Source: an uncultured delta proteobacterium (lineage in GTDB: Bacteria; Myxococcota; Myxococcia; Myxococcales; Anaeromyxobacteraceae). Taken from it: a stretch of 48,427 bases of DNA. Positions 15,880-46,890 of the stretch are shown in pieces. The position numbers were made by a program, and so were the translations under genes. Where the stretch lies: the NCBI GenBank assembly GCA_963828255.1, contig CAWHDZ010000029.1, forward strand, positions 1 to 48,427. Direction: 5' to 3'. The notes beneath the pieces were generated by a model. The model did no database searches. It had not been told where the DNA came from and worked only from the letters and a program-made list of their open reading frames with translations. Numbering within the stretch: the first letter of the stretch is position 1; the number at the start of each line of letters is the position of its first letter.

Positions 15880-17272
15880 ATGAGCCGACCTCCCCGGGAC
15901 CGCTTCCCCTCGCAGATCAAGTACCTGGCCTGGAACGAGGGGTGCGAACGCTTCTCGTTCTACGGCATGACCTCGATCCTCACCATCTACATGGTGACCT
16001 TCCTGGGGGTCCGGGAACCCGACGCCGAGGCCAACTACCACTTCTTCGTCTTCGCCGTGTACCTCACGCCGCTCGTCGGCGCCTGGATCGCCGATCGCTT
16101 CCTGGGGCGCTACCAGGTCATCCTCTGGCTCTCGCTGGGCTACGTCTTCGGCCACGCCGCCATCGCCATCTGGGAGTCGCCGGCCGGGCTCGTGCTGGGC
16201 CTGTCGCTCATCGCCATCGGTGCGGGCGGGATCAAGCCCACCGCCGCGGCCTACGTGGGCGACCAGTTCGACGCGAGGAGCCAGCACCTGCTCGAGAAGG
16301 TCTACGACCTCTACTACTGGATGATCAACCTGGGGTCGTTCACCTCCATGCTCGTCATCCCCGAGCTCCTGGCCCGCTTCGGTCCCTGGGTGGCCTTCTC
16401 GGTCCCCGGCGTGCTCATGGCGTTCGCGCTCGTCATCTTCTGGCGCGGTCGCCGCCTCTACGTGAACGTCCCGCCCACCGGCCCCAACCCGAACGGCTTC
16501 TTCCGGGTGGTCCGGCTGGCCCTGAAGAGGCTGGGGACCACCCGTCCCGGCGAGCACTGGCTCGACCCGGCCCGGGCGCAGTTCCCCGCCGAGGCGGTCG
16601 ACGGCGCCAAGGCGGTCTTCCGCATCCTGGGGGTCTTCGCGCCCATCGCGGCCTTCTGGGCCCTCTTCTTCCAGTACGGGTCCTCCTGGGTGCTGCAGGC
16701 CGAGCGCATGAACCGCGAGATCCTCGGCTACACGGTGAAGGCGTCGCAGATGGGCTCCCTGAACGCCATCTTCGTGCTCACCACCATCCCGGTCTTCGCC
16801 GGCCTGGTCTACCCGGCGCTGCAGCGGCGCGGGGTGAAGACGCTGGCCCTCCAGAAGATGCAGATCGGCATGTTCGTCACCGTGCTCTCCTTCCTCTGGG
16901 TGATGGGCGTCCAGGTCGCGCTCGACGCGGGCCTCCGGCCGCACGTGGCCTGGCAGGTCCCGGCCTACCTCTTCCTCTCCATCGGCGAGGTGCTGGTCTC
17001 GGTGACCGCGCTCGAGTTCGCCTACACCCAGGCGCCGCCCTCCATGAAGAGCGTCATCATGAGCCTCTGGTACGTGACCATCGCGGCCGGCAGCCTGCTC
17101 ACCGCCGGCGTGGCCAAGCTCAACCGCTTCCACGGCGGTCTGGTACTTCGCCTTCTTCGCGGTGCTCATGTTCATCGGCGCGCTGGCCTTCGCCTGGGTG
17201 GCGCGGCGCTACCGGCCCACGTCGTTCGCGGCCGGGCCCGGGACGGCGCCGGCGGCGGAGGGCAGTCCGTGA
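15880..17272 (+). CDS. POT/PTR-family proton-dependent oligopeptide transporter, copy 1 (frameshift near 17135)
   Basis: 'EGCERFSFYGM', 'GGIKP....VGDQF', 'LEFAYTQAP'. The last helix (WYFAFFAVLMF...RRYRP) lies in the shifted frame, ending at TGA 17270-17272. Confidence 0.9.
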
Positions 17273-18675: not shown

Positions 18676-21600
18676 GCCGGCACCGGTACCCCGTCGACGT
18701 ACGCCACCCGGGCTCCCAGCGTCGCCGGCACCTTCGCGCCCGGCAGGATTCCCCCCACCAGGTTGAGCGGGTCGGCACCCGAGAGCTCCACCCGCTCGCG
18801 GCCCCCGGGCGCGCGGCGCACCGCGCGCAGCGACTCGACGGCGGCCGGGAGCGCGTACTGCTCGCCGGAGAGGCCGGCCACGAAGCGCCCGCCGCGGATT
18901 TCGCCACGGGCCTCGAGCGCCCGGTAGACCGGGCAGGAGCTCGCGCCAGGGTGGGGCGAGCGGCTCTCGGCCGAGGAGGTCGCGGAAGACCACGCCCCAG
19001 CGGGCGAGGAGTTGCCGGGCCATGGGCTCGACGGGCGAGGGAGGCGACGGAGCGTCTTCGGCCCGGGGGAGGCGGAGCAGCGCCCACCGTCCCCCTCCCT
19101 GACCCGGTCGGCGCGGTCGGTGGCGCGGCGGGGGATCGAGCAGCGCACGCAGCCCGGCGAAACCGTCGCAGGTGACGAGCCCCGCCGAGACGAGCTCCCA
19201 GAGCGCCCCCTCCACCTCGCCGGGGAGCCGCCCGGTCATGGCGGCAAGGTCGGGCAGGAAGCAGGCGCCGCAGCGGCCGAGCAGGTCGACGAGCGGCGCG
19301 GGCCGAGGCGCCGAGCGGCGGCGGCAAGCCGTGCGCAGCCGAGAGGAGCCAGGGCAGGTCGCTGCGCAGGGCCAGCGTCACCGGCGCGTGGCGGGTGGGA
19401 GCGGCGCGACGGCGCGGGACGTCGCCTTGCTCCGGGGCGACGGCGAGCCTTCCCCAGGCCACCTCGCCGGAGAGGCAGAGGGCGTCGAGCATGCCGGGCT
19501 CGTAGCCGGTGAGCCGCGCGGGGAGGATCTCCCGCTCCCAGGCGCCCGCCGCCGCATGGAACCCCTGGAGCTGGCCGACGACCTCGGCGAGGCCGCGCGT
19601 TCCGTGGAGCCGCGCGCCCGGCGCGGCGTGCTGCCAGCGGAGGAGGAAGCGCACCAGGTCGGCGCCGGAGACGGGCTCGATCTCGCGGCGCAGGCGCCCC
19701 AGCGTGAGCCGGTGGATGCGGGCCAGCAGTCCCCGGTCGCACCAGTCGGCGCCCGGCTCGCCGCCGGGCAGGAACGAGCCGCGGAGCAAGACCCCCTCCG
19801 ACTCGAGGCGGTGGAGCGCGGCCACGGCGAGCGGCAGGGGAAGGCCGAGGCGGGCCGAGACCGAGGGTGCGGTGACCGGACCGAGCCGCGCCATCCAGCC
19901 GCGAAGCGCCCGCGCTGCCGCCACGTCGGGCGACGCGGGAAGGTCCTCGCCGGGGAGCCCCGGAAGCGGTGGTTCGAGCGGCGAGGCGTCGATCCCCGGC
20001 TCCGCCGCGAGCACGCGCCAGGCGCCGGCCCGCTCCGCCGCCACCCAGGCCTCCCTCCCGCCCAGCCGCGCCCGCGCCGCACGCCCACCGGCGAGGAGCG
20101 TGTCGAGGAACCCGCGGAAGGGCGCGCCCTCCGTCGCGGGCAGGAACCCCACGTCGAGGAGCAGGTCGTGCAGCTCGTCGGCGTCGCGGGGACCGGGGCG
20201 CGCCTGCTCCACCACCTCGGCGATCGCCTCCGGGGAGAGCGCGCCGATGCCGGCGGCGTCGGCCGCGGGCAACGATCGCCGCAGCACCACCGCCCGGGCC
20301 CGCCGCTCCTCGAGCGGGGCGTCGTCGAGGAACGCCCAGGGCTTCGCCCCCAGGATCTCGTGGGCCAGCGGCGAGGGCTCGGCCAGGTCGCGTGCCAGGA
20401 GGCGCACCTCGCCGGCCTCGATGCGCCGGAGGAGCCGTTTCAGCCCCGCCGCGTCCATGGCCTCTCCCAGGCAGTCGCGCAGGGCCTCCTCGACGAGCGG
20501 GTGGTCGGGCGGCTCGACCGGCCCGGCGTGCTGGTCGGCGTTGTCCTGGCAGGCCACCGCCAAGGGGAAGACCGCGGCGAGCAGGTCGTCGGCGCGCATG
20601 CGGGCGATGGGCGGAGGCACCTTGCGACCGCCCAGCACCCTCGGGAGCGCCAGCGCGCGGGTGGCGTCCCAGCGCCAGCGGATGGGGAACATGGGGGACT
20701 GGAGCGCCGCCTGCGTGAGCACCTCGCTCGATGCGTTCCGAGGAGAGCATCTCGAAGATCGACGCGAGCGGGAAGGAGTGCTGCGGCCCGAGCGACAGCA
20801 GCACGCCGTCGTCGCTGGCGGCGGCCTGCAGCTCGAAGTCGAAGGCGCGGCAGAAGCGCTTGCGGAGCGCGAGCCCGAGGGCGCGGTTCTGGCGGGCGCC
20901 GAACGGGGCGTGGAGCACGAGCTGCATGCCGCCCGACTCGTCGAAGAAGCGCTCGGCGACGAGCGTCTCCTGGGTGGGCAAGGCGCGAGAGCACGCGCGC
21001 GCGCCGCGGTGAGGTAGTCGACCGCCTGGCGCGCGCCCGGCCTCCGGCAGGGAGCCCTCGGCGGCGAGCCACGCGACGGCGGCGTCGCGATCGCCGAGCC
21101 GCGGCTCGAGATCGGCGCGAAGCCGCGAGACCTCCGCCGAGAGGGCCGCGCTCCTCCCCGGCGCCTCGCCGAGCCAGAAGGGGATGCCCGGGGCCGCGCC
21201 GCCGGCGTCCTCGACCCGGACCACGCCCGACTCGATGCGCCGGATGCGCCAGGCGGTGTTGCCGAGCAGGAAGACGTCGCCGGCCATGCTCTCCACCGCG
21301 AAGTCCTCGTCCACCTGCCCGACCGCCAGGCCTCCGGGCTCCGCCACCACCTGGTACTGGGCGTTGTCGGGGATGGCGCCGCCCCCGGTGAGCGCGGCGA
21401 TGCGCGCGCCGCGCCGCCCGCGGACCACGTGGTTCACGCCGTCCCGGTGGAGGAGCGCCCCGGATCGCCCGCGGCGGGTGGCGGTTCCCTCGGAGAGCAT
21501 CGTCACGACGGCGTCGAACTCCCGGCGCGGGAGCTCGCGGTAGGGCCAGGCCCGCCGGACCATCGCGAAGAGCTCGTCCTCCCCGACCGGCCGCGACGCC

Positions 21601-22868
21601 GCCTCGGCCACGATCTGCTGGGAGAGCACGTCGAGCGGCCAGGGGGGAGGGGCGATGGCCTCGAGCGCTCCGGCCCGCAGGCCCCGCACCAGCGCCGCGC
21701 ACTCGACGAGCTCGTCGCGGCTCATGGGGAAGAAGCGTGCCTTCGGCGTCGCGCCCCGCCAGTGTCCGGACCGTCCGGCGCGCTGCAACGCCACGTGGAG
21801 CGCCCCCGGGCTGCCCAGCTGGGCCACCAGGTCCACCGTGCCGATGTCGATGCCGAGCTCGAGCGACGCGGTGGCGACGATGGCCCGGAGGGAGCCCGCC
21901 TTGAGCCGGTCCTCGGCGTCGAGCCGCCGCGCCCGCGACAGGCTGCCGTGGTGGGCGGCCACCTGCCCCTCGCCGAGCCGCTCGGAGAGCGCGTGGGCGG
22001 CCCGCTCGGCGAGCTTGCGGGTGTTCACGAACACGAGGGTGGTCCGGTTCTCGCCGGGTGAGCTCCGCGAGCCGGTCGTAGGTCTCGGCCCACTGCTCCT
22101 TGGAGGCCACCGAGGAGAGCTCGTCCCGCGGGATCTCCACGCCCAGGTCGAGGACGCGCCCGCGCCCCACCTCGACGACGGCGCACTCCGCGGCCGCCGC
22201 GACGCACCCGCCCGGCGCCCACCAGGAAGCGGGCCACCTCCTCGACCGGGCTCACCGTGGCCGAGAGGCCGATGCGCTGGGGGCGGCGCGTGCAGAGCGC
22301 CTCGAGCCGCTCGAGCGAGAGGGAGAGGTGGCTGCCGCGCTTGTCGCGGGCCACGGCGTGGATCTCGTCGACGATCACCTTGCGGACCGGGGCGAGCGAC
22401 CGGCGCCCCTTCTCGCTCGTGAGGAGCAGGTAGAGCGACTCGGGGGTGGTGACGAGGACGTGGGGCGGGCGCTTCAGCATGGCCTGGCGGCGCGACGAGG
22501 GCGTGTCCCCGGTGCGGACCGCGGCGCGGATGGTCGGGGAGGCGCAGCCCGGCCGCCCGGGCCGCCTCCTGCGAGCGCCGGCGAGCGGCTCGCGCAGGTT
22601 CTTCTCGATGTCGTTCGAGAGGGCCTTGAGCGGCGAGACGTAGAGGATGCGGGTCTCGTCGGGGAGCGCCCCCTCGAGCCCCTCGCGGAAGAGCGAGTCG
22701 AGACCGGAGAGGAAGGCGGCGAAGGTCTTGCCCGACCCCGTGGGCGCGGAGATCAGGACGTCGCTGGCCGGCCTGGATCTCCGGCCAGCCGGCGGCCTGC
22801 GGCTCGGTGGGGGAGCCGAAGCGGGCCTCGAACCAGCCCGAGACCAGAGGGTGGAAGCCGGGGAGCAC
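18645..22868 (-). CDS. lhr: Lhr-family (large helicase-related) SF2 helicase with extended C-terminus (multiple frameshifts)
   Basis: 'APTGSGKT', 'SPLKALSND', 'VDEIHA', 'GLSAT', 'HHGSLS', '[12 protein letters not shown]', 'QRAGRSGH', and C-terminal '[10 protein letters not shown]', '[16 protein letters not shown]'. Spread over several frames. Confidence 0.9.
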
Positions 22869-22978
22869 GTTCCCGATCTATCGCAGGGGGCTGTCGGGTG
22901 CCCGGGCCCTGGCGCCGCGCCGCCGCGGCGGGCCGATCGGCGTCCGTTCCGCGGACCATCCGGCCAGATGGGGCGTAA

Positions 22979-23004
22979 GGAAACGACGTATTGACAAGGT
23001 TTCC
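22979..23004. promoter_or_regulatory. Inverted repeat GGAAAC-N14-GTTTCC enclosing a perfect TTGACA
   Basis: TTGACA at 22991-22996 inside the inverted repeat, in the lhr/HNH divergent intergenic region. No clear matching -10. Confidence 0.35.
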
Positions 23005-23182
23005 GTGGAGATCCGGTTCGGCGAATCGGCGGCACGTGGATGGTGGTTCTCGCCGCGCATCCGCCCCGTGCGCGCGCTTGCGGCGTTCCTGGCGAGGGTC
23101 GAGATCGTCGCGCCCTGGAATGCGAGCCCGGCCGTTCTCGTGCGTTCCAGGAGGTCGTGAAAACGCGTGAGAGAGTGGTGGC

Positions 23183-24233
23183 ATGAACGCACGCGAATGG
23201 TCACCTCCGTCATGTCGAACTCCTCCGCGCCGAGCGAGGCGCCCTCGCCGACCTGCTCCTCTCGCTCGCGGAATTCGACCGGGTGCGGCGTACCGGGAGC
23301 TCGGCTTCGCCACGCTCTTCGACTACCTCCACCGGGAGCTCCATCTCTCCCGGGGCTCGGCCCACTACCGGCAGGTCGCCACCCGGCTCGTCGTGCGGTT
23401 CCCGGAGATTGTGGAGCCGCTTCGGGATGGGCGGTCTATGCCTCACCACCGTGATCGTGCTCGCGCGGGTGATGACCGAGGCGAACCGGCACGAGGTTCT
23501 TCCGCGCTTCTTCGGCCTCTCCCGTCAGGAGGCGGAGCAAGTCGCGGTGGAGATCCGGCCCGTCGAGGTGGTGCCGCGGAGGACGGTCGTCACCGAGGCG
23601 CCGGTTTCGAGGACGGCAACGGCAGGCGATCCCGCCGACGTCGTCGTGCCGAACGTGAAGGACCACTCGCGTTCAATCGTTGAACTGGCCCCGGCCCGGA
23701 CCCTCGTCGAACCGCTCACACGCCGGGAGACCCGGATTCACATCACGGTGTCGCCGGAGTTCCTGGCGCTGCTCAAGAAGGCCAAGGCCGGCCAGTCCCA
23801 CCGTACAGCCCGGCGCGACCGACGAGCAGGTGCTCACCGCGGCGCTGGAGTTGCTCATCGCGAAGCAGGAGAAGCGGCGGGCCAGCGTGCCGCCGAAGGT
23901 GAAGCGGGAGGTGTGAAGCGGGACGGGGGCAAGTGCACGTGGCCGCTCGCGATACGGCGGTATCTGCGGCGCGACGGTGCGGCTGGAGGTGGACCACGTC
24001 GTCCCGCGAGGGAAGGGCGGCCCGTCGACGGTGGACAACTGCAGGATCCTCTGCAGACCGCACAACCTCGAGGCTGCGCGGCAGGCCTACGGCGACGAGG
24101 TGATGGACCTGTTCACCCGGGGTGGAGCACGGACGGGGACCGCGGCGGCACGAGGAGGTCGGCGGAGTACGGGCCAGCACGGGGTGCGACCCGGCGCGGA
24201 ATCCGATTGTGCGCCCGGCCGCAGGCGGGGTAG
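23183..24233 (+). CDS. HNH endonuclease with DUF222-like helical N-terminus (heavily frameshifted; possible pseudogene or selfish element)
   Basis: Joined frames: '[40 protein letters not shown]...[16 protein letters not shown]' and '[18 protein letters not shown]...[34 protein letters not shown]'. About 6-7 frameshifts; 3' end approximate. Confidence 0.8.
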
Positions 24234-26914: not shown

Positions 26915-27899
26915 GTGCGCGCGCTCCTCTGCACCGAATTCGGTCCGGTCTCGAACCTGCGGGTCTCGGAGGTCCCGGACCCCGTCCCCGGCGACGGCGA
27001 GGTGCTCGTCCGCGTGGAGGCGGCCGGCCTCAACTACCCCGACGGCCTGATGGTCCAGGGGAAGTACCAGGTCCGCCCGCCGCTCCCCTTCGTTCCCGGC
27101 ATGGAGCTCGCCGGGGTGGTCGAGGCGGTCGGCAAGGGGGTCGACGCCTTCGTCCCCGGCGACCCGGTGATGGCCGTCCCCGGGGCCGGCGCCTTCGCCG
27201 AGCGCTGCGTCCTCCCCGCCGACCAGGTGCTGCCCCGCCCGGCCTCGCTCCCTCCCGACCTGGCCGCCGCCTCGCTCCTCACCTACGGCACCACGCTGCA
27301 CGCGCTCGAGGATCGCGCCCGCCTCCGCTCCGGCGAGACGCTGCTCGTGCTCGGCGCCGGCGGCGGGGTGGGCACCGCGGCGGTGGGAATCGGCAAGCTC
27401 CTCGGCGCGAAGGTCATCGCCGCCGCCTCCTCGGCCGAGCGCCTCGAGACCTGTCGCCGCCTCGGCGCCGACTTCACCGTCGACTACTCCACCGAGGACC
27501 TGCGCGAGCGGGTCAAGGTCCTCACCCAGGGACGCGGCGTCGACGTGGTCTACGACCCGGTGGGGGGCGCCCTCTCCGAGGCGGCGCTCCGCTCCACCGG
27601 CTGGGGTGGCCGGTTCCTGGTGGTCGGCTTCGCGTCCGGGGAGATCCCCCGCATCCCCCTCAACCTGGCGCTGCTCAACGCCCGCTCCATCCTGGGCGTC
27701 TACTGGGGGGACTGGTCCCGCCGGGAGCCCAGGAAGTCGGCCGACGAGCTCTCCCGCATCGCCGCCTGGATCTGCGAGAAGCGCCTCTCCCCCGTGGTGA
27801 CGGCCCGCCTCGGCCTGGCCGAGCGTCCCCGGAGCCCTCGAGGACCTGCTCGCTCGCCGCGCCCACGGCAAGCTGGTGGTCCTCCCCGGAGGGCCGTGA
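26915..27899 (+). CDS. NADPH:quinone oxidoreductase (zeta-crystallin/MDR family; frameshift near 27825)
   Basis: 'GLNYPD..QGKYQ..PPLPFVPG', 'VLGAGGGVG', 'DVVYDPVGG', 'VGFASGEIP'. Confidence 0.9.
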
Positions 27900-28285
27900 C
27901 CCTCTCCGAGCTCATCGGCCGGCCGGTCCCCTTCGCCGAGTTCCTGGGCATCCGCATCGTGGGGAACGAGCCCGGTGCCCCACGGCTCGAGCTGGCCCTG
28001 CGCCCCGAGCTCATGAACAGCTTCCACGACGCCCACGGCGGCGTGGTCATGGCGCTCGCCGACGTGGCGCTGGCGGTGGCGGCCATCACCCGGGACGGGA
28101 CGGCCCGGGGCGCCATCACGGTGGACCTGTCGGTGAGCTTCCTCGGCCCCGGCAAGGGGACCCTCGCGGCGGAGGCCCGCTGCCTGCGCGCCGGGAAGTC
28201 GCTCGCCTTCTCGGAGGGGGAGATCCGCGACGCCTCGGGGACCCTGGTGGCGAAGGCGATCGGCACCTTCAAGCTGCGGCGCTGA
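27896..28285 (+). CDS. PaaI-family thioesterase
   Basis: 'NSFHDAHGGVVMALAD', 'TVDLSVSFLGP'; GTG overlaps the previous stop. Confidence 0.85.
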   Translation: MTLSELIGRPVPFAEFLGIRIVGNEPGAPRLELALRPELMNSFHDAHGGVVMALADVALAVAAITRDGTARGAITVDLSVSFLGPGKGTLAAEARCLRAGKSLAFSEGEIRDASGTLVAKAIGTFKLRR

Positions 28286-28994
28286 TCAGGCTGCGCCCTC
28301 CGCGCAGCTCCGGCACCACCGCCAGGTGGTCCTCGCGCGCCGCCCATTCCACCTCCCGCTCGAGCCCGCGCTCCCGCATCATCCTCCCCACCCGGCTCCG
28401 CGACAGGCAGTCGAGCGCGTCGCTGCCGTCGTGGAGGATCTGCGCCGCCAGCGCCGTGTCGGAGAGCTCCCAGCCCGGTTGGCTGCGGGTGAAGTGGGAG
28501 ACCAGGTGGCCGGCGCCGTAGAAGTCCTCCAGGTTGAAGGCGTCGACCGATCCGGAGCAGACCACCAGCACGGTCTCCCCCTCGGCCCGCGCGATCACGT
28601 GCTCCACCACCGCCGCGCCGTTCGCGAGCGCCGCCGCGTAGACCCGGGAGGCACCGGCGGCCCTGCGGATGGCCACGGTGCCGTTGGTGGTCGAGTAGAC
28701 GAGCGCCCGCCCGCGGAGCGGCTCCCCGAGCAGCGAGAGCGGGGTGGGAGGGGCGAAGCCCGGGAGCGTCTCGGCGCCGTACTCCCCGGCCAGCACGAAG
28801 GAGCCGGGCGGCCGGGCCGCCGCCACCGCCCGGGCCGCGTCGCCGTCGAGCGCCGGGATCACCTCGGTGGCGCCGTGGGCCAGCGCCGCCGCGATGCTCG
28901 AGGTGGCGAAGAGCACGTCGAGGACGATCACCACCTTGCCCGGCAGGCGCTGCCCGTCGAGCTCCTCCTTCTTCGCGAGGACGTGGAGCTTCAT
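28269..28994 (-). CDS. 2-phosphosulfolactate phosphatase (ComB)-family protein
   Basis: 'VIVLDVLFATSSI', 'LAGE', 'YSTTNGT', 'VCSG....FNLEDFYGAG'. Confidence 0.85.
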   Translation of the reverse strand: MKLHVLAKKEELDGQRLPGKVVIVLDVLFATSSIAAALAHGATEVIPALDGDAARAVAAARPPGSFVLAGEYGAETLPGFAPPTPLSLLGEPLRGRALVYSTTNGTVAIRRAAGASRVYAAALANGAAVVEHVIARAEGETVLVVCSGSVDAFNLEDFYGAGHLVSHFTRSQPGWELSDTALAAQILHDGSDALDCLSRSRVGRMMRERGLEREVEWAAREDHLAVVPELRGGRSLISAAA

Positions 28995-30085
28995 CCCAGG
29001 TCGTGAATGCGCTGCCGGTCGAGGGCGCGGGTGGCCTGCGTGCCGAGGACGCGCACCATGTGGATGAGCGGGGCGAAGCGCGGGTCGGTGGTGTGGCCGT
29101 CCCTGTAGCGGCGGTAGATCTGCTGGACGATCACCGCCAGCTTGAAGAGGGCGAAGACGTAGTGGAAGAGCACGTTCTCCACGGCCCGCCCCGACCGCTC
29201 CGCGTAGCGCTCCACCACCTCGCGGCGGGAGAGGCCGCCGGGCAGGTGGGTGGGGCCGAAGGCGTGGGCGCGGAGCTCGACGGGATCGTCCGGGTCGGTC
29301 CAGTACCCGAGCGCGGTGCCCAGGTCCATGAGCGGGTCGCCGATGGTGGCCATCTCCCAGTCGAGCACCGCAACCACCCGCGACGGGGTGGCCGGGTCGA
29401 GCACCACGTTGTCGTACTTGTAGTCGTTGTGGACCAGCGCCACGCCGCTCTCCGGAGGCATGTGGGCCGCGGCCCAGGCGGCGGCCGCCTCGATCTCCGG
29501 AACCAGGTCGGTCCGAGCGGCGAGGTAGCGATCGGTCCAGCCCTTCACCTGCCGTCCCACGTAGCCGGCCGGCTTGCCCAGGGCGGCCAGCGCCGTGCCC
29601 TCCACCGGGACGGCGTGGAGGTCGACCAGGTTGTCCACGAGCGCCGTGGAGGTGGCGCGGAGCAGTTCCGGCGTGAGCGCGAGGCCGGAGCCCGAGCCGT
29701 CTCCGCGCAGGATCACCCCCTGCACCCGCTCCATGAGGTAGAAGCGGGCCCCCAGCACCGTCTCGTCCTCGCAGAAGGCGAGCGGCCTCGGGGCGCGCGG
29801 GTAGACCCCCTGCAGCGCCGAGAGCAGGTTCCACTCCCGCCCCATGTCGTGCGCGCTCTTCACCCTGGCGCCGAAGGGGGCGCGGCGCAGCACCGCCTCG
29901 TGGTCGCCGATGGCCACCAGGTAGGTGAGGTTGGAGTGCCCCTTGCGGAACTGGCGCGCCAGGATGGGCCCCTCCGCGCCCGGGAAGGCCCGGACCAGGT
30001 AGGGACGGATCCGCTCCGGGTCGAAGCGTTCCTCCTCGCGGACCTCGTCGGCCTCGTCGATGCGCGGAGCGGACGGATCGCTCAC
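28991..30085 (-). CDS. APH-family phosphotransferase (LvaA / ACAD10-11 kinase-like)
   Basis: 'QFRKGHSNLTY', 'SAHDMGRE', 'LVHNDYKYDNV', 'LDWEMATIGDPLMDLG', 'AVIVQQIYRRY'. Confidence 0.9.
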   Translation of the reverse strand: MSDPSAPRIDEADEVREEERFDPERIRPYLVRAFPGAEGPILARQFRKGHSNLTYLVAIGDHEAVLRRAPFGARVKSAHDMGREWNLLSALQGVYPRAPRPLAFCEDETVLGARFYLMERVQGVILRGDGSGSGLALTPELLRATSTALVDNLVDLHAVPVEGTALAALGKPAGYVGRQVKGWTDRYLAARTDLVPEIEAAAAWAAAHMPPESGVALVHNDYKYDNVVLDPATPSRVVAVLDWEMATIGDPLMDLGTALGYWTDPDDPVELRAHAFGPTHLPGGLSRREVVERYAERSGRAVENVLFHYVFALFKLAVIVQQIYRRYRDGHTTDPRFAPLIHMVRVLGTQATRALDRQRIHDLG

Positions 30086-31297
30086 GCCTCGCCCCTGCCC
30101 TTCGCGTACCCGTGCAGGATGCGCTTCGCCACGCTCGAGATGTGCACCTCGTCGGCGCCGTCGTAGATGCGCGCCGGCGCGCTCGTGGCGGTACCAGAAG
30201 GCCAGCGGCGTGTCGTCGGTCATGCCCAGCGCCGCCGTGCACCTGGATGGCCCGGTCGAGCACCCGCTGCAGGATGCCGGCCACGGAGAACTTGATGGTG
30301 GAGATCTCCTCGCGGGCCGCCGATGCCCCCTCCTGCGTCGATCTTCCGCGCCGCGTCAAGCACCAGCAGGCGCGCCGCGTCGATCTCGGCGCGGCTCTCG
30401 GCGATCCAGTGCTGCACCATCTGCTTGCCGCCAGCGGGTCGCCGGGCGCCAGCTGCCGGGTGGCGGCGTACCGGCACATGAGGTCGAAGGCCCGCTCGCA
30501 GATGCCGATCCAGCGCATGCAGTGGTGGATGCGCCCGGGCCCGAGCCGGTCCTGGGCCAGCACGAAGCCGCCGCCCTCCGCGCCGAGCAGGTTGCCAGCG
30601 GCACGCGGCAGCCGGTCAGCACGCACCTCGCCGTGGCTCAGCCAGTCCGCGCCGCGCTCGCCCATCACCGAGATGTTGCGCACCAGCTCGAAGCCCGGCG
30701 TGTCCGGTGGGCACGATGATCATGCTGGCGCGCGGTGCGGCTTCGGCTCGCCGGGGTTGGTCACCGCCATGCACGATCGCGAAGGCGGCGCCTTCGGCCG
30801 AGGAGGCGAACCACTTGTGGCCGTCGATCACCCAGTCGTCGCCCTCCTTCACGCGCGGTGGTGCCCATCCACACCGGGTTGGAGCCGGCGAGCTCCGGCT
30901 CGGTCATGGCGAAGCAGCTGCGGATCTCCCCGCGGCCAGCGGCGCCAGCCAGCGCTCCTTCTGCTCGGCGGTGCCGTGCTGCGAGGATGAGCTCCATGTT
31001 GCCGATGTCGGGTGCCTGCACGTTGAAGCAGTAGTGGCCGAGCGGGCTCTTCCCCAGCTCCTCGGAGAGGTGGGCGAACTCGGTGAGCGGCAGGTGGGCG
31101 CCGCCGTACCCGGGCGGCATGTGGGCGGCGAAGAGCCCCGTCTCCCGTGCCTTCTCCCTCACCCGCCGCAGCTCGGGGAGGATGGATCCGAAGCCGCCGT
31201 GCCGGAAGCGCGGCTCGAGGGGGAAGACCTCCTTCCGCATGAAGTCGCGCACCAGGCCCTGGAAGCTCCGAACGCGATCCGACGTCGAGAAGTCCAT
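30082..31297 (-). CDS. Acyl-CoA dehydrogenase, ACAD10/11 (LvaC)-type (multiple frameshifts)
   Basis: 'FNVQAPDIGNME', 'RSCFAMTEP', 'AQDRLGPGRIHHCMRWIG', and 'RIYDGADEVH' with Asp at the catalytic position. Confidence 0.85.
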
Positions 31298-31309
31298 GGA
31301 GTCTCCCGA

Positions 31310-32083
31310 TCAGTAGAGGCAGGCGCCGCCGTCCACCACCAGGCACTGGCCGGTGACGTGGCGGGAGGCGTCGGAGGCCAGGTAGGCCACCGCGCCCTTG
31401 AGGTCCTCCTCGCCGCCGATCCGGCCGAGCGGCGTGCTCGCCACGACCATGTCGCCGATGACGTCGAGGAGGCCGTGGGTCATCTTCGACGGGAAGAAGC
31501 CGGGGCAGATGGCGTTCACGTTGATGTCGTACCGGCCCCACTCCACGGCGAGCGCGCGGGTCAGGTTCACCGCCGCGCCCTTGCTGGCGTTGTAGGCGAT
31601 GGTCTGCATGCCGGGAGGGTTGCCGGAGAGTCCGGAGACGGAGGCCACGTTCACGATCTTCCCGGAGCGACGGGGGATCATGAAGCGCCGGGCAACCTCC
31701 TGGGAGAGGAAGAACACGGCGTCGATGTTGAGGCGCATCACCTTGTCCCAGGCCTCGGCGGGGTAGTCCTCGGCCGGGGCGCCCCAGGTGGTGCCGGCGT
31801 TGTTCACGAGCACGTCCACCGTCCCGAAGCGGGCCGCCACCGCGTCGACCAGCGCCGGGATGCCCTCCCGGCGCCCCAGGTCGACCGGCACCGTCATCGC
31901 CTCGACGCCCAGCCCGGCGAGGTGCTTCGCGGCCACCTCCAGCTCGGCGGCCTTGCGCGCGGTGATGGCCACCCGGGCGCCCATCTCGCCGAGCGCCTCC
32001 GCCATCTGCAGCCCCAGGCCGCGGGAGCCGCCGGTGACGAGCGCCACCTTTCCGGAGAGGTCGAGCAGTTTCTTGAGGCTCAT
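31310..32083 (-). CDS. Short-chain dehydrogenase/reductase (gluconate-5-dehydrogenase/LvaD-like)
   Basis: TGGSRGLG, NNAG, YNASK motifs. Confidence 0.9.
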   Translation of the reverse strand: MSLKKLLDLSGKVALVTGGSRGLGLQMAEALGEMGARVAITARKAAELEVAAKHLAGLGVEAMTVPVDLGRREGIPALVDAVAARFGTVDVLVNNAGTTWGAPAEDYPAEAWDKVMRLNIDAVFFLSQEVARRFMIPRRSGKIVNVASVSGLSGNPPGMQTIAYNASKGAAVNLTRALAVEWGRYDINVNAICPGFFPSKMTHGLLDVIGDMVVASTPLGRIGGEEDLKGAVAYLASDASRHVTGQCLVVDGGACLY

Positions 32084-32280: not shown

Positions 32281-33477
32281 ATGGACCTCACGTTCACCCC
32301 GGACGAACGGCGCTTCCGCGACGAGGTCCGGGACTTCCTCGCGTCGAGCCTGCCCGCCGCCATGCGCCACACCGTGCTGGAGGGGCTGCACATCCCGCCC
32401 GGGGACACCGTGGAGTGGCAGCGCATCCTCTTCCGCAAGGGCTGGGGCGGCCCGAACTGGCCGGTCGAGTTCGGAGGCACCGGCTGGGACCCGGTCCGCC
32501 AGTTCATCTTCGAGGAGGAGTGCGCCGCGGCCGGGACGCCGCGCCTGCTCCCCTTCGGCCTCAAGATGGTCGGGCCGGTGATCCAGCGCTTCGGCAACGC
32601 CGCCCAGCACGCCCGCTTCCTGCCCCGCATCCTCTCCGGCGAGGACTGGTGGTGCCAGGGCTACTCCGAGCCCGAGGCCGGCTCCGACCTGGCCTCCCTC
32701 CGGACCCTGGCCGTCCGGGAGGGCGACCATTACGTGGTGAACGGCCAGAAGACCTGGATCACGCTGGCCCAGCACGCCGACTGGATCTTCTGCCTGGTCC
32801 GCACCGACCGCACCGGCAAGGCCCAGGCCGGCATCTCCTTCCTGCTCATCGACATGAAGTCACCGGGAGTGGAGGTTCGCCCCATCACCATGCTCGACGG
32901 CGGCCACGAGGTGAACGAGGTCTGGTTCGAGGACGTGAAGGTCCCGGTCGAGAACCTCGTCGGCGAGGAGAACAAGGGCTGGACCTACGCCAAGTTCCTC
33001 CTCGGCCACGAGCGGGCCAACATCGCCGGGATCGGCACCTCGAAGCGGGAGCTGGCCCGGCTGAAGCACATCGCCGCGGCGGAGAGGAAGAACGGCCGCC
33101 CCCTCACGGAGGATCCGCTCTTCGCGGCCCGGCTGGCCCAGGTGGAGATCGACCTGCTCGCCCTCGAGATCACGAACCTCCGGGTCCTCTCGGCGGAGGC
33201 CGAGAAGCGAGCCCCGGGGCCGGAGGCCTCGCTGCTCAAGATCAAGGGGACGGAGATCCAGCAGGCCCTCACCGAGCTCATGGTGCAGGCGGTGGGCCCC
33301 TACGCGCTGCCCTTCCGGATCGAGGCGCTCTCGGGAGGCTTCGCCGGCCCGCCGGTGGGGCCGGCGTACGCGGCGCCGCTCGCCGCCACCTACTGCAACA
33401 TGCGCAAGACCTCGATCTACGGCGGCTCGAACGAGATCCAGAAGAACATCATCTCCCAGATGATCCTGGGCCTGTAG
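32281..33477 (+). CDS. pimC: Acyl-CoA dehydrogenase, PimC-like large subunit
   Basis: 'WWCQGYSEPEAGSDLASL', 'GWTYAKFLLGHER', 'RKTSIYGGSNEIQKNII'. Confidence 0.8.
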   Translation: MDLTFTPDERRFRDEVRDFLASSLPAAMRHTVLEGLHIPPGDTVEWQRILFRKGWGGPNWPVEFGGTGWDPVRQFIFEEECAAAGTPRLLPFGLKMVGPVIQRFGNAAQHARFLPRILSGEDWWCQGYSEPEAGSDLASLRTLAVREGDHYVVNGQKTWITLAQHADWIFCLVRTDRTGKAQAGISFLLIDMKSPGVEVRPITMLDGGHEVNEVWFEDVKVPVENLVGEENKGWTYAKFLLGHERANIAGIGTSKRELARLKHIAAAERKNGRPLTEDPLFAARLAQVEIDLLALEITNLRVLSAEAEKRAPGPEASLLKIKGTEIQQALTELMVQAVGPYALPFRIEALSGGFAGPPVGPAYAAPLAATYCNMRKTSIYGGSNEIQKNIISQMILGL

Positions 33478-33486
33478 GAGCGCGCC

Positions 33487-34618
33487 ATGCACTTCCACCT
33501 CACCGACGAGCAGCAGGCGCTCTCCGACATGGTGCAGCGCTTCGTCGCGCAGGAGTACGGGTTCGACGCGCGGCGCAGGATCCTCCGCTCCCCCGAGGGC
33601 TGGAGCCGCGAGATCTGGGGCAAGCTGGGGGAGATGGGGCTCCTCGCCCTGCAAGTCCCGGAGGAGCAGGGCGGGATGGCGCCGGCCACCGTCGAGACCC
33701 TCGTCACCCTGGGTGCCATGGGGCGCGCGCTGGTCGTCGAGCCCTACCTCTCCTCGGCCGTCGTGGGGACGGCGCTGGTCCGTGGGCTCGGCACGCCGGC
33801 GCAGCGGGAGGCCCTGCTCCCCGGCATGGCGACGGGCGAGCGGATCGCCGTCGTGGCCCACGGGGAGGAGGGCGCCCGCCACGATCCCTCCCGCGTCTCC
33901 ACCGCGGCCCGCCGGGAGGCTCGGGGTGGATCCTCGAGGGCAAGAAGGCGGTGGTGCTGCACGCCCCCGCCGCCGACCTGCTCCTCGTCACCGCCCGCAC
34001 CTCCGGCGCGCCCGACGCCGAGGACGGGCTCTCCGTGTTCGTGGTCCCGGCCTCGTCACCCGGGGTGAAGCTCACCGCGTACCCGACCATCGACGGGCAG
34101 CGGGGAGCCGACGTGGCGCTCTCCGGGGTCGAGGTGCCGGGCGACGCGCTGCTCGGGGCGGAGGGGAAGGCCTTCCCGGCCCTCTCGGCAGCCCTCGACC
34201 TGGGCGTGGCCGCGCTCTGCGCGGAGGCGGTGGGAGTGCTCCAGGCCACCCTCGACGCCACCACCGAATACACCCGGACCCGCAAGCAGTTCGGCGTTCC
34301 CATCGCCCGGTTCCAGGCGCTGCAGCACCGCATGGCCGACATGCTGATGCACGTGGAGCAGGCCCGTTCGATGAGCTACCTCGCCGCCATGCACGCCGCC
34401 TCGGAGGACGTCCGGGAGCGGCGCCGCCTCGTCTCCGCCGCCAAGGTGACGGTGGGGCAGGCCTGCCGGTTCGTGGGGCAGCAGGCGGTCCAGCTCCACG
34501 GCGGCATGGGAGTGACCGACGAGCTCATGGTGAGCCACCTGTTCAAGCGGCTCATGGCCATCGAGCTGTCGCTCGGGGACACCGAGCACCACCTGGAGCG
34601 CTTCATCACGGAGAGCAA

Positions 34619-34622
<4 letters not shown>
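33487..34622 (+). CDS. pimD: Acyl-CoA dehydrogenase, PimD-like small subunit (frameshift near 33915)
   Basis: 'GRALVVEPYL', 'RKQFGVPIARFQALQHRMADM', 'QLHGGMGVTDE', 'LGDTEHHL'. Paired with the pimC-like gene. Confidence 0.8.
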
Positions 34623-36707
<2,085 letters not shown>

Positions 36708-36722
36708 GAAACGGAGATCGCC

Positions 36723-37901
36723 ATGTCCGACGCCGTCATCGTCTCCACCGCCCGCACCGGCCTCGCCAAGTCCTGGCGCGGCGCGCTCAACATGACCCAC
36801 GGCGCGACCCTGGGCGGCCACGTGGTGAAGGCCGCCGTCGAGCGCGCCCGCATCGACCCCGCCGAGGTGGAGGACGTGATCTTCGGCTGCGGCCTTCCCG
36901 AGGGCACCACCGGAGGCAACGTGGCCCGGCAGATCGCGCTGCGGGCCGGGCTCCCGGTCACCACGGCGGGTCACACGGTGAACCGCTTCTGCTCGTCCGG
37001 GATGCAGGCCATCGCCATGGCCGCGCACCGGGTCATCGTCGACAAGGTGCCGGTGCTGGTGGCCGGCGGCATCGAGCAGATCTCCTGCGTGCAGCAGGAG
37101 CTGAACCAGCACATGTTCGCGGACCCCTGGCTCGTCGAGAACAAGCCGGCCGTCTACATGTCCATGCTGGACACCGCCGAGGTGGTGGCGAAACGGTACG
37201 AGATCCCCCGCGAGAAGCAGGACGAGTACGGGGTGCGGAGTCAGCAGCTCGCCGCCGCCGCCCAGGCCGCGGGCAAGTTCCAGGACGAGATCGTCCCCTT
37301 CCGGACGGTGATGGGGGTGGGCGACAAGGCCACCGGCCGCCTCTCCATGAAGGAGGTCACGCTCGACGCCGACGAGGGCATCCGCGCCGACACCACCTAC
37401 GAGGGCGTGGCGAAGATCAAGCCGGTGGTCCCGGGCGGCACCATCGCCGCAGGGAACGCCAGCCAGTTCTCCGACGGCGCCTCGGCCTGCGTGGTCATGG
37501 ACGGGAAGCTGGCCGGGAAGAGGGGTCTCGCGCCGCTCGGAATCTTCCGCGGGTTCGCCGTGGCCGGGTGCGAGCCGGACGAGATGGGCATCGGCCCGGT
37601 CTTCGCGGTGCCGCGGCTCCTCGAGCGCACCGGCGTGAAGATGCAGGACGTCGGGCTCTGGGAGCTGAACGAGGCCTTCGCCGTCCAGGTCCTCTACTGC
37701 CGCGACCGCCTGGGAATCCCCGACGACCGGCTCAACGTGAACGGCGGCGCCATCGCCGTGGGGCACCCCTACGGCATGTCCGGGGCACGCCTCGTGGGGC
37801 ACGCCCTCATCGAGGGGAAGCGGCGCGGGGTGAAGCTGGTCGTCGTCACCATGTGCATCGGGGGCGGCATGGGCGCGGCGGGGCTCTTCGAGGTCGCCTA
37901 G
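36723..37901 (+). CDS. Acetyl-CoA C-acyltransferase (thiolase, PimB-like)
   Basis: 'NRFCSSG', 'NEAFA', 'GHPYGMSG', 'MCIGGGMG'. Confidence 0.9.
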
Positions 37902-37914
37902 CAGGGTTTCCGGG

Positions 37915-39114
37915 GTGCTCGAGGCCTACCTCTACGACGGGCTGCGAACCCCCTTCGGCCGCCACGCCGGGGTGCTCGCACCGGTCCGCCCCGACGACCT
38001 GGCCGCCGGCGTGATGCGGGCGCTGCTCGCGCGATCGCCCTGGCGGGCGGAGGAGATCGAGGACGTCTACCTGGGCTGCACGAACCAGGCGGGCGAGGAC
38101 TCCCGCAACGTGGCCCGACACGCGGCGCTCCTGGCGGGCCTTCCGCCCACCACCCCGGCGATGACCGTCAACCGGCTCTGCGCCAGCGGGCTCGCCGCGG
38201 TGGTCGATGCGGCGCGGGCCATCACCGCGGGGGAGGGGGACCTCTACCTGGCCGGCGGGGTGGAGAGCATGAGCCGCGCCCCCTTCGCCATGGCCAAGGC
38301 CGAGGCTCCGTACGCGCGGGAGGCGAGGGTGTTCGACACCACGCTGGGGGCCCGGTTCCCCAATCCACTGTTGGTGAAGATGTACGGGTCGGACAGCATG
38401 CCCGAGACCGGCGACAACGTGGCCCGGGAGCAGGGCGTCTCCCGCGAGGAGGCCGACGCCTTCGCGGCCCGTTCGCAGGAGCGCTGCGAGCGGGCCCGGG
38501 CGTCGGGGTTCCTGGCCGGGGAGATCACCCCGGTGGAGGTCCCCGGGCCCAGGAAGGGAACCACCGTCGTGCGCGAGGACGAGCACCCGCGCCCCGGGAC
38601 GACGCTCGAGGCGCTCTCGCGGCTGCGGCCGCTCTTCGATGGCGGAGTGGTCACCGCCGGGAACGCCTCGGGGGTGAACGACGGTGCCGCGGCGCTGCTG
38701 GTGGGCTCGCGCGCCGCCGGGGAGCGGGCCGGGGTCCGGCCGCTCGCACGGATCCTCGCGTCGGCAGCGGTGGGGGTGGAGCCGCGGGTGATGGGGATTG
38801 GCCCGGCCTTCGCCATCCCGAAGGCGCTGGCGCGCGCCGGGCTCGCGCTGTCCGATCTCGACGTGATCGAGGTGAACGAGGCCTTCGCGAGCCAGGTGCT
38901 GGCCTGCCTGAGGCTCCTCGGCATCCCGTTCGACGACCCGCGGGTGAACCCCAACGGCGGCGCCATCGCGCTGGGTCACCCGCTCGGCGCGTCCGGGGCG
39001 CGGCTCGCCCTCACCGCGGCGCGGGAGCTCCGGCGGCGGGGGAGCGGGCGGGCCGTGGTGAGCCTGTGCATCGGCGTGGGGCAGGGACTGGCCATGGTCA
39101 TGGAGGCAGCCTGA
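37915..39114 (+). CDS. pcaF: 3-oxoadipyl-CoA thiolase (PcaF/PaaJ-like)
   Basis: 'VRPDDLAA', 'NQAGEDSRNVAR', 'NRLCASG', 'GVESMSRAPF', 'CIGVGQG'. Confidence 0.85.
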   Translation: MLEAYLYDGLRTPFGRHAGVLAPVRPDDLAAGVMRALLARSPWRAEEIEDVYLGCTNQAGEDSRNVARHAALLAGLPPTTPAMTVNRLCASGLAAVVDAARAITAGEGDLYLAGGVESMSRAPFAMAKAEAPYAREARVFDTTLGARFPNPLLVKMYGSDSMPETGDNVAREQGVSREEADAFAARSQERCERARASGFLAGEITPVEVPGPRKGTTVVREDEHPRPGTTLEALSRLRPLFDGGVVTAGNASGVNDGAAALLVGSRAAGERAGVRPLARILASAAVGVEPRVMGIGPAFAIPKALARAGLALSDLDVIEVNEAFASQVLACLRLLGIPFDDPRVNPNGGAIALGHPLGASGARLALTAARELRRRGSGRAVVSLCIGVGQGLAMVMEAA

Positions 39115-39869
39115 TGTCGAACAACGTGCGGACGTCCACGGCGGACCGGATCGTGGAGATCGAGATCCACCGGCCCGAGAAGAAGAACGCGCTCACCGGC
39201 GAGATGTACGACGCGATGTCGCTGGCCTTCGATCGGGCCGACGCGGACCCGCAGGTCCACGTGATCTTCCTGCACGGCCAGGCCGGCTGCTTCACCGCCG
39301 GGAACGACCTCGCCGACTTCCTCTCGGCCGGGCGCGGGGAGGGGGTGGCCTCGCCCGCGGCAAATTTCCTCGCGGCCATCCGCACGGCCCGCAAGCCCGT
39401 CGTCGCCGCGGTGGGCGGCGTGGCGGTGGGCATCGGGACCACCATGCTGCTCCACTGCGAGCTCGTCTTCGCCGCCCCGAACGCCCGCTTCCAGATGCCC
39501 TTCGTGCCGCTCGGGCTCGCGCCGGAGGGCGGGTCGAGCCTGCTCCTTCCCATGCTGGCCGGCTACCAGCGGGCCGCCGAGATGCTGCTCCTGGGGCGCC
39601 CGTTCGGCGCCGAGAGGGCCATGGCGGCGGGGCTCGTGAACGAGGTGGTCCCGGAGGACCGCCTGCTCGCCCACGCGCGCGAGGCCGCCCTGGCGGTGGC
39701 GGCGCTGCCCGTGGAATCGGTGCGGATCACGAAGGAGCTGCTCAAGCGGCCGCACGCCCGGGCGCTCGAGGAGCGGATGGCCGAGGAGTTGCGCATCTTC
39801 GGGGAGCGGCTCCACTCGCCGGAGGCGAAGGCGGCGATGGGGGCGTTCTTCGAGCGGAGGAAGGGGTAG
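39114..39869 (+). CDS. Crotonase-family enoyl-CoA hydratase/isomerase (ECI2-like)
   Basis: 'FTAGNDL', 'AVGIGTTMLLHC', 'PFVPLGLAPEGGSS'. Confidence 0.85.
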   Translation: MSNNVRTSTADRIVEIEIHRPEKKNALTGEMYDAMSLAFDRADADPQVHVIFLHGQAGCFTAGNDLADFLSAGRGEGVASPAANFLAAIRTARKPVVAAVGGVAVGIGTTMLLHCELVFAAPNARFQMPFVPLGLAPEGGSSLLLPMLAGYQRAAEMLLLGRPFGAERAMAAGLVNEVVPEDRLLAHAREAALAVAALPVESVRITKELLKRPHARALEERMAEELRIFGERLHSPEAKAAMGAFFERRKG

Positions 39870-41243: not shown

Positions 41244-41247
41244 TCCC

Positions 41248-44220: not shown

Positions 44221-44230
44221 TCTCCTCGTT

Positions 44231-44833: not shown

Positions 44834-44842
44834 GGTCCGTCC

Positions 44843-46888: not shown

Positions 46889-46890
46889 GG

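Follow-up and report, generated by a model that had tools for sequence, protein, structure and literature searches.

What does a protein of the ComB family do at the end of an operon of acyl-CoA enzymes? The name phosphosulfolactate phosphatase is attached to thousands of proteins of this family from organisms without coenzyme M, and ComB proper carries out the Mg-dependent hydrolysis of 2-phospho-hydroxy acids. The question is raised by a 48,427-nucleotide stretch of DNA (the window; contig CAWHDZ010000029.1) from an uncultured delta proteobacterium of the Anaeromyxobacteraceae. On the minus strand at 28269-32083, the window carries genes for a short-chain dehydrogenase (SDR), an ACAD11/LvaC-type protein, an APH kinase and a ComB-family protein, which we call ComBx, all at the place given in the initial annotation.

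The tight spacing described for these four genes was confirmed by checking the coordinates, the domains and the start/stop overlaps of the last three. The SDR gene (31310-32083; 257 aa; PF00106/PF13561) is separated by a 12-bp gap from the gene for the ACAD11/LvaC-type acyl-CoA 'dehydrogenase', a predicted phosphate-eliminating enzyme (30082-31297) recognized by motifs in the window DNA. This gene, the APH-fold kinase gene (28991-30085; 364 aa; PF01636) and the ComBx gene (28269-28994; 241 aa; PF04029) follow one another with successive 4-bp overlaps, GTGA at the ACAD stop and APH start and ATGA at the APH stop and ComBx start; the SDR, kinase and ComBx genes are open frames in the window. A PaaI/4HBT thioesterase gene on the plus strand (27896-28285; PF03061 on 27926-28285) is convergent to the ComBx gene, the two 3' ends overlapping by 17 bp, and its product is a possible source of free 4-phospho acid; a thioesterase gene is present in 38/57 long dereplicated ComBx loci. 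Divergent from the operon lies a plus-strand beta-oxidation block (32281-39869; Pfam and NCBIfam matches) encoding a PimC/PimD-like ACAD pair, a FadB-like ECH-HCDH protein, two thiolases and an enoyl-CoA hydratase. This arrangement is repeated in relatives, and the block would receive the enoyl-CoA product of the operon.

The ACAD and kinase can be compared with published systems, which are described here from the accessible portions of the reports (PMC6692424, PMC11342911, PMC13596139, PMC12440821). The phosphate-pocket motif and the Asp of IYDG that had been noted for the ACAD are both in the window DNA (RLGPGRIHHCMR and RIYDGADEVH), but in different frames, and the gene is broken by 12 single-base indels when compared with a copy on contig C31 of the same bin, which is intact and encodes 403 aa. 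Contigs of relatives lack eight of the 12 indels. Since both the C31 copy and the genes of close relatives are intact, the indels are probably assembly errors rather than the mark of a private pseudogene. The intact ACAD of one relative (locus L030) has ACAD11 as its best match (E 3e-81), other ACADs being far weaker (3e-45). Alignment of this protein to 8v3u and 2wbi, together with the two window motifs, places the catalytic Asp and the R...HCMR phosphate pocket at the equivalents of R626, H634, R637 and D753, the phosphate-pocket and catalytic residues of mouse ACAD11 (PMC12440821). The window operon has both its kinase and its ACAD family in common with ACAD10 (HAD-kinase-ACAD) and ACAD11 of mammals and worms (PMC12440821, PMC11342911, PMC13596139).

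The window kinase, with the motif HNDYKYDN, belongs, in contrast to ACAD10 and ACAD11, to the HND/HYD subgroup (the HND[YFW] type of ACAD10/11/LvaA-like kinases), which shares about a third of its residues with the HGD type. Its best PDB matches are 9o56 (E 5e-91), 3dxp (3e-47) and the mouse-type ACAD11 8v3v (3e-46); judged by residue numbers, 9o56 is probably the Caldalkalibacillus thermarum 'ACAD10 kinase'. All seven residues reported as needed in that enzyme (PMC13596139) are conserved in the window kinase, and R67, E84, D221, K223, N226, D242 and E244 are invariant among 48 linked kinases. The C. thermarum kinase carries the motif of the ComBx-linked kinases of low-GC loci, HYDYKLNN, and was assayed on alkylglycerol, this closest solved kinase phosphorylating chimyl alcohol in vitro (PMC13596139). 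Our search of the literature, in the portions accessible, found no assay of bacterial kinases on 4-hydroxyacyl-CoA. Judged by motifs and best PDB matches, the kinase/ACAD module is of the known lva/ACAD10-11 kind, as the initial annotation had proposed; phosphorylation followed by phosphate elimination is reported for LvaAB and ACAD10/11.

The SDR scores 390 bits with the NCBIfam subfamily model NF006070 (cut-off 279), is 49% identical to the SDR of a low-GC locus (L146) and recurs in related, kinase-linked loci; it is likely to be a 4-oxo/4-hydroxyacyl-CoA reductase with a putative LvaD-like role. CoA ligases (PF00501) have no match on the window contig, and none is encoded in the operon, in agreement with the earlier observation; there are 16 matches elsewhere in the genome, one of them on contig C31, roughly 4 kb beyond the block of synteny. 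The overlapping operon genes leave no room for an lvaB-like small gene, and DUF6285, which we take to be a possible LvaB-helper family, was not found in the genome. As described in the accessible text, the Pseudomonas putida KT2440 lva operon (LvaA/B/C/D/E; PMC6692424, PMC11342911) likewise combines an APH kinase, an ACAD11-type enzyme and an SDR with phosphorylation-elimination motifs, whereas the window operon has no small lvaB-like gene between its overlapping genes and no CoA ligase gene, and has a ComB-family gene in addition. The lva cluster of Pseudomonas citronellolis LA18T, in which lvaB was not found, has a histidine phosphatase gene (PCLA_07f0393) adjoining the kinase gene (PMC6692424). 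Its product has the PF00300 fold, unrelated to the ComB fold of the window protein. In ACAD10 a phosphatase-family domain of the HAD fold is tied to the kinase, whereas the window has separate genes and a ComB fold (PMC11342911, PMC13596139).

ComBx is a member of the ComB family (PF04029, 184.4 bits against a cut-off of 26.4), yet it lies below the equivalog cut-offs of all eight NCBIfam/TIGR models (best 131 against 330 bits; TIGR00298, 71.7 against 175) and forms a separate branch in the family tree. The AF2 model (pLDDT 97.5) has the ComB fold, with a Foldseek TM of 0.93 to 1vr0, and structure comparison (VIA) gave Z 36.2 to 2z0j (rmsd 1.4, 229 aligned), the next family reaching Z 6.4. With Arg-type ComB, including the 2-phosphosulfolactate phosphatases 1vr0, 2yyv and 2z0j (PF04029, TIGR00298), ComBx shares D26, T31, E71, T102-T103-N104-G105-T106, N125, C146, G148 and D157, and this acidic and TTNGT core is kept among sequences only 30-50% identical. 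Unlike ComB proper, ComBx occurs in an acyl-CoA context and has F29, Y72, P83 and T84 in place of R29, R72, N83 and S84. Arg-type ComB, the three PDB entries among them, retains the Arg of DxLRA, the Arg of GER and the Asn-Ser of GNSP (R72 in 31/34, N83 in 33/34 and S84 in 32/34 of the group), all of which are absent in ComBx; we infer that these positions bind substrate in ComB proper. Across the ComBx branch, position 29 changes from Arg to F, L or M, and there is a new N-terminal K-E motif. The lost arginines could reflect a loss of catalysis instead of a new substrate. The absence of comA, noted earlier for the window, extends to the whole genome (PF02679 not found; 99.2% complete, 6.6% contamination) but is uninformative, because ComA is also missing in 5/7 control genomes with ComB.

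Gene neighborhoods tie ComBx to the kinase in two of three groups. In low-GC (Bacillales-like) metagenome loci the kinase gene lies within 200 bp of the ComBx gene in 63/69 informative cases (49/54 after merging at 90% identity, 28/32 at 70%), and in Myxococcota/delta loci in 11/19; counted anywhere in the locus, it is present in 68/69 and 18/19, respectively. The expected conservation of a ComB gene beside the kinase thus stands for these groups and fails for betaproteobacteria, where the kinase gene was adjacent in 0/58 loci and within the locus once. Among 20 betaproteobacterial kinase loci that were fetched, ten were on the ComBx contig at a distance of 12.5-21 kb and ten on other contigs. 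No kinase was found in 9/50 ComBx genomes, mostly MAGs; in 251 genomes sampled evenly from the window's phylum, the kinase was present in 13/13 ComBx genomes and 111/251 overall. Loci with weak or Arg-type ComB matches had no kinase within 1.5 kb (0/15). ComBx accompanies both kinase subtypes, the adjoining HN/HY type and the HG type found in 40/48 betaproteobacterial-type genomes, a pattern more in keeping with a common metabolite than with one constant protein partner. Of the long low-GC and Myxococcota loci left after dereplication, 35/42 contain an LvaC-type gene, and 26/29 of the low-GC ones have a CoA ligase gene. In low-GC loci the kinase and ComBx genes stay joined while those for ACAD, SDR and ligase change their order.

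The predicted mutual exclusivity of the ComB gene and histidine phosphatases held in the genomes searched. A kinase-linked histidine phosphatase was found in 0/13 ComBx genomes of the even sample as against 67/98 other kinase-positive genomes, and the histidine-phosphatase profile matched 0/62 ComBx genomes and 0/160 ComBx loci. In a single family (f5), the histidine phosphatase is found in three genomes and ComBx in the fourth. Among 301 genomes of the phylum to which genome G254 belongs, each of the 19 that carry the same HN-type kinase also has the histidine phosphatase, within 6 kb in 15/19, and none has ComBx. The Fisher P of 1.7e-6 for the exclusion in the even sample comes from few lineages in which kin are not independent, and it overstates the case because 12 of the 13 ComBx genomes belong to one family that has 0/33 histidine-phosphatase matches regardless. 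The slot is often empty, as a histidine phosphatase of the kinase-linked type is missing in 31/98 and 38/91 kinase-positive, ComBx-negative genomes. The second His of the histidine phosphatase of locus L295 is presumably catalytic, and 29/31 kinase-adjacent histidine phosphatases have Ser at this position.

From these data we slightly favor the reading that the operon is an lva/ACAD10-11-type 4-hydroxyacyl-CoA module in which ComBx would be a counter-phosphatase, the third to be recruited independently, that acts on 4-phosphoacyl-CoA or on the corresponding free acid. Activation of a 4-oxo or 4-hydroxy acid would fall to a CoA ligase from elsewhere in the genome, the SDR would set the 4-hydroxy state, and the kinase, by its motifs, would make the 4-phosphoacyl-CoA from which the ACAD11-type enzyme is predicted to eliminate phosphate, giving a 2-enoyl-CoA for beta-oxidation. 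ComBx may then dephosphorylate stalled product left uncleared by the ACAD, acting on the thioester itself or once a neighboring thioesterase has freed CoA; this step is suggested by the gene context, the exchange with the histidine phosphatase and the remodeled pocket. Taken more broadly, ComBx likely undoes or restrains the phosphorylation made by the kinase. Weighing against the counter-phosphatase reading are the distance to the kinase in betaproteobacteria, the frequently empty slot, the broken ACAD gene of the window, the negligible activity of the ACAD10 HAD domain on 4-phosphohexanoyl-CoA (PMC11342911) and the action of the closest solved kinase on chimyl alcohol (PMC13596139). The relief-phosphatase role proposed in the initial annotation is not new as pathway logic because it is in print for two other folds: the histidine phosphatase beside lvaA is proposed to act on 4PV-CoA (PMC6692424), and disabling the phosphatase domain in ACAD10 gives more kinase product (PMC11342911, PMC13596139). 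The new part is the ComB-family occupant of the phosphatase slot, of which we found no description in the literature. Rather more tentatively, the ComBx branch of Bacillales, Myxococcota and betaproteobacteria may be mis-annotated as a whole and, following the HAD and histidine phosphatase folds, meet an obligatory control of phospho-acyl-CoA metabolism in a third independent way; all three occupants, their sites remodeled or partly disabled, would then serve 4-phosphoacyl-CoA as its valve or its sensor.

An unlikely alternative, though the best of those considered, is that ComBx catalyzes slowly or not at all, being a pseudo-phosphatase that would bind the phosphorylated intermediate and curb or aid the kinase, much like the regulatory role suggested for the HAD domain of ACAD10 or for LvaB as a helper. 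Each of the three occupants of the slot has a degenerate look: ComBx by its four lost residues, the histidine phosphatases by their Ser, and the human ACAD10 HAD domain, which restrains the kinase, by retaining half a DxD motif (PMC11342911). Moreover, the P. citronellolis cluster has the phosphatase and no lvaB (PMC6692424), and the kinase/ComBx start/stop overlap suggests coupled translation. Against this, the acidic and TTNGT core of ComBx persists at low identity, ComBx goes with two kinase subtypes about 33% identical and lies kilobases from the kinase in betaproteobacteria, and the recruitment of three unrelated folds, all of phosphatase families, points to a catalytic need. That the kinase and ComBx act on another lipid alcohol (alkyl- or acylglycerols) as a partly ACAD-independent unit, as reported for ACAD10 in ether-lipid salvage, is improbable; two loci (L195 and L197) hold thioesterase, kinase and ComBx genes but lack an LvaC-type gene in the surrounding 8 kb or so, but the prevalence of LvaC-type and ligase genes at other loci, and neighbors that are acyl-CoA enzymes and not glycerolipid genes, argue otherwise. 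It is also quite improbable that ComBx is a housekeeping phosphatase of beta-oxidation clusters, acting for example on CoA-derived or damaged phosphometabolites, with kinase proximity a matter of hitch-hiking: the betaproteobacterial neighbors (pimCD, enoyl-CoA hydratase, MaoC, thioesterase, CoA ligase and alpha/beta hydrolase, not kinase) would suit such a role, but the kinase-ComBx pair survives shuffling in low-GC loci and exclusion with the kinase-linked histidine phosphatase would not be predicted. That ComBx is simply a 2-phosphosulfolactate phosphatase in the synthesis of sulfolactate or coenzyme M, as the PF04029 match, database names and 1vr0 fold would have it, is highly implausible for a protein that falls below eight equivalog cut-offs, branches separately, has lost the Arg-type invariant residues and is encoded among fatty-acid genes in a genome where ComA was not found.

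Under the counter-phosphatase reading, a large branch of the ComB family gains a specific, testable candidate job and a two-residue recognition signature, and the kinase-linked phosphatase slot is seen to be filled by three unrelated folds. Two groups dispute the roles of the ACAD10 phosphatase domain and the kinase substrate, in the accessible text of their reports favoring 4-hydroxyacyl-CoA (PMC11342911) and ether lipids (PMC13596139), and the stand-alone bacterial kinase/ComBx pairs, including thermophilic ones with the solved kinase type, allow a direct test of this dispute. If true, the broader proposal of a valve or sensor would give the ComB fold its first non-coenzyme M function in fatty-acid catabolism and would offer, for the disputed role of the ACAD10 phosphatase domain, a simple bacterial model. 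The findings also bear on the engineering of levulinate and gamma-lactone use.

The operon lies on the minus strand and comprises genes for an SDR (31310-32083), an ACAD of the ACAD11/LvaC type (30082-31297), an APH kinase (28991-30085) and a divergent ComB-family protein, here called ComBx (28269-28994). The initial annotation had described this four-gene order, the overlap of the last three genes and a set of protein motifs, and all of these were recovered: the SDR and ACAD genes are spaced by 12 bp, the ACAD/kinase and kinase/ComB junctions each overlap by 4 bp, and the motifs are present in the window sequence. A PaaI thioesterase gene is convergent with the ComB gene, and a divergent beta-oxidation block with PimC/PimD-like, FadB-like, two thiolase and hydratase genes begins at 32281. 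A plasmid tblastn search returned zero matches, a promoter and terminator scan gave 0 sites and is uninformative at 73% GC, and RNA run X20, with only 0.06 of the words, was left aside for expression.

The window is an entire contig of its genome bin, and its positions 1-39880 are collinear with positions 85421-128201 of C31, another contig of that bin. As this synteny extends over ~40 kb at 84-89% identity and the contamination of the bin is 6.6%, the window contig most likely represents a second, related population in the bin; a true two-copy duplication within one genome is less likely given the same synteny. Past the end of the synteny, the window (39888-48427) carries a sigma54 response regulator, a histidine kinase and a kdpA/B/C/D potassium-pump cluster; at this point C31 instead encodes ABC transporters and a CoA ligase. 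Among named loci, the closest belong to Anaeromyxobacteraceae (80-93% protein identity), so that the phylum would be Myxococcota. Single-base indels relative to C31 are clustered and number 12 in the ACAD gene, 8 in a glutaryl-CoA-dehydrogenase-like gene and 0-2 in other genes; the SDR, kinase and ComB genes are in frame, and the ACAD copy on C31 is intact (403 aa). In contigs of relatives from public runs, the window indels are absent at 8 of the 12 ACAD places among the matches listed. The ACAD indels are likely an assembly error, a pseudogene private to the window being the other explanation that may be entertained. An Lhr-type helicase (18533-23035, minus strand) is also spread across several frames, consistent with indel errors of the contig. 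Two repeated features were observed elsewhere in the window: a ~1.2-kb element (22933-24130) with copies 65-80% identical on >15 contigs of the bin, whose ORFs gave no Pfam match at 1e-5 except for the adjoining DUF4442 gene, and tandem stretches (15895-17236 and 17302-18672) ~70% identical to each other and both present on C31, in which the ORFs tried gave no Pfam match.

The lva/ACAD10-11 pathway is already known, and phosphorylation of 4-hydroxyacyl-CoA with subsequent phosphate elimination is established for LvaAB/LvaC and ACAD10/11 (PMC6692424, PMC11342911 and PMC12440821). An intact relative of the ACAD best matched human and mouse-type ACAD11 (E 3e-81 and 9e-80, with ordinary ACADs from 3e-45) and has equivalents of R626, H634, R637 and D753, the ACAD11 residues named in PMC12440821. 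The kinase matched PDB 9o56 (E 5e-91), followed by 3dxp and ACAD11. Residue numbering of 9o56 agrees with that of the Caldalkalibacillus thermarum kinase described in PMC13596139, from which we infer that they are the same protein, and the seven residues needed according to that paper are invariant across 48 ComBx-linked kinases. The window operon would presumably carry out the same phosphorylation-elimination chemistry.

ComBx belongs to a separate branch of its family. The gene product scores over the Pfam PF04029 cut-off and under all 8 NCBIfam equivalog cut-offs, and its predicted structure (pLDDT 97.5) has the ComB fold. Position 29 is Phe in 118 of the 121 close homologues with the column filled; among 115 full-length representatives (50% clustering) it is Arg in 34 and Phe/Leu/Met in 79. 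Both groups have D26, T31, E71, TTNGT, N125, C146, G148 and D157, and R72, N83 and S84 are retained in the Arg group only. A quick tree of 108 rows placed the Arg-type proteins apart from the rest with SH-aLRT 96, a split that counts representative P0245 as Arg-type against its initial pattern-based label. The residues lost in ComBx would line the substrate site. Longer proteins were screened for a fusion of ComBx to the kinase: an APH domain was absent from all 6 matches (weak evidence). A kinase-ComBx complex prediction scored 0.00, with no verdict either way. Other fusions were encountered. In P0303-P0307 (572-574 aa; P0304 carries a Mesobacillus name) ComBx is fused to an alpha/beta hydrolase_3 esterase, and many betaproteobacterial loci likewise have an alpha/beta hydrolase gene after ComBx; that this hydrolase serves as a gamma-lactonase is a guess. 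Singletons P0212 and P0308 join ComBx with a thioesterase or zinc-type oxidoreductase domain and are possibly frameshift artefacts.

To map the neighborhood of ComBx, the best 80 loci from each of two locus scans were taken, a sample that consequently leans toward the queries, and counts were made from six-frame profile searches, which replaced an automatic ORF clustering muddled by antisense frames. The expectation that ComB genes would lie beside APH kinases elsewhere held in two groups of loci, but not in the betaproteobacterial type. The low-GC metagenome loci have protein clusters that bear Bacillaceae names; in them the kinase is <=200 bp from ComBx in 63 and anywhere in the locus in 68 of the 69 loci with >=400 bp upstream (11 short loci excluded), and within 200 bp in 49/54 and 28/32 when loci are collapsed at 90% and 70% identity. 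It is adjacent in 11 and within the locus in 18 of 19 informative Myxococcota/delta loci (21 in total). For the betaproteobacterial type (n=58) these numbers are 0 and 1, and the neighbors of ComBx are pimCD, hydratase, MaoC, thioesterase, ligase and hydrolase genes. The kinase was found in 41 of 50 genomes searched, out of 80, and for 10 of 20 fetched kinase loci the contig equals the ComBx contig in length, with kinase and ComBx 12.5-21 kb apart. None of 15 loci with weak or Arg-type ComB matches has a kinase at 1.5 kb or less. A thioesterase is present in 38/57 long dereplicated ComBx loci. Four loci (L191, L192, L195 and L197) contain a TetR-thioesterase-kinase-ComBx unit but neither an LvaC-type gene nor an SDR (~8 kb per side in L195 and L197), which suggests that kinase and ComBx can move as a pair even when the ACAD does not.

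Mutual exclusivity of ComB and histidine phosphatases, also anticipated in the initial annotation, was borne out in the genomes searched: a 7-sequence histidine-phosphatase profile (E 1e-12) matched 0/62 ComBx genomes and 10/10 control genomes, 9 of them picked as known carriers. The window's own bin has three weak generic matches elsewhere in the genome. The large searches scored only some of the candidates in each genome, and many genomes are MAGs. In an even sample of the window's phylum (251 genomes) the kinase was found in 111, ComBx in 13 and the histidine phosphatase in 70; the kinase accompanies ComBx in 13/13 genomes and the histidine phosphatase in 0/13, 12 of them being one family without histidine phosphatase throughout, and the other 98 kinase-positive genomes divide into 67 with the histidine phosphatase and 31 with neither. 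Another family of this phylum has the histidine phosphatase in three genomes and ComBx in one. In the phylum of G254, kinases of the same HN subtype adjoin a PF00300 protein. Among 301 genomes around G254 the kinase occurs in 92 and ComBx in G254 only, and the histidine phosphatase in 53 of the other 91, including 19/19 HN-type (7 of the matches being profile members by construction). The exclusion pattern appears in three lineages, Anaeromyxobacter-like, Rhodocyclales/Burkholderiales and, at the locus level only, the low-GC loci. Kinase-adjacent histidine phosphatases (L253-L351) have Ser (TSGG/SSGG/TSAG) in 29/31 where L295 has His (LHGG), and genomes with this protein also carry the kinase in 67/70 and 53/57 cases in two genome samples; these phosphatases are apparently a degenerate subfamily tied to the kinase. 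Where the place for a kinase-linked phosphatase is empty, a Pfam scan that took in 46 selected kinase neighbors from 257 cluster representatives revealed no HAD or other recurrent phosphatase, and one LMW phosphatase (L317).

On balance, the probable explanation, and the simplest, is a single slot for a phosphatase whose substrate is the product of the kinase. Its occupant would be the HAD domain in ACAD10, ComBx here, and in gammaproteobacteria and most myxobacteria a histidine phosphatase. A histidine phosphatase was previously proposed as a relief phosphatase (PMC6692424). Results for the ACAD10 HAD domain in this role are mixed, with negligible activity on 4-phosphohexanoyl-CoA in PMC11342911 and reversal of the kinase on ether lipids in PMC13596139. 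All three slot occupants have a degenerate look, which fits a slow or dead sensor restraining the kinase, an unlikely alternative for ComBx. In line with the ether-lipid results of PMC13596139, the kinase and ComBx may instead be paired to phosphorylate and dephosphorylate alkyl- or acylglycerols, which we consider improbable. Betaproteobacterial gene order would suit a general phosphatase of the cluster, a reading we hold to be slightly more doubtful still. A classical ComB function is very improbable, and the absence of comA was discarded as an argument against it and carries little weight because ComA occurs in just 2 of the 7 ComB-positive genomes among 14 controls, the other 5 lacking it.

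No report tying ComB to the lva/ACAD10-11 system was found in the open-access literature, and subscription papers may bear on this point. The genomic case for the predicted role of ComBx in the kinase module is well supported. As the occupant of the phosphatase slot, ComBx would hydrolyse 4-phosphoacyl-CoA left uncleared by the ACAD, or the free 4-phospho acid that remains once a thioesterase has acted, a compound observed in cells (PMC11342911).
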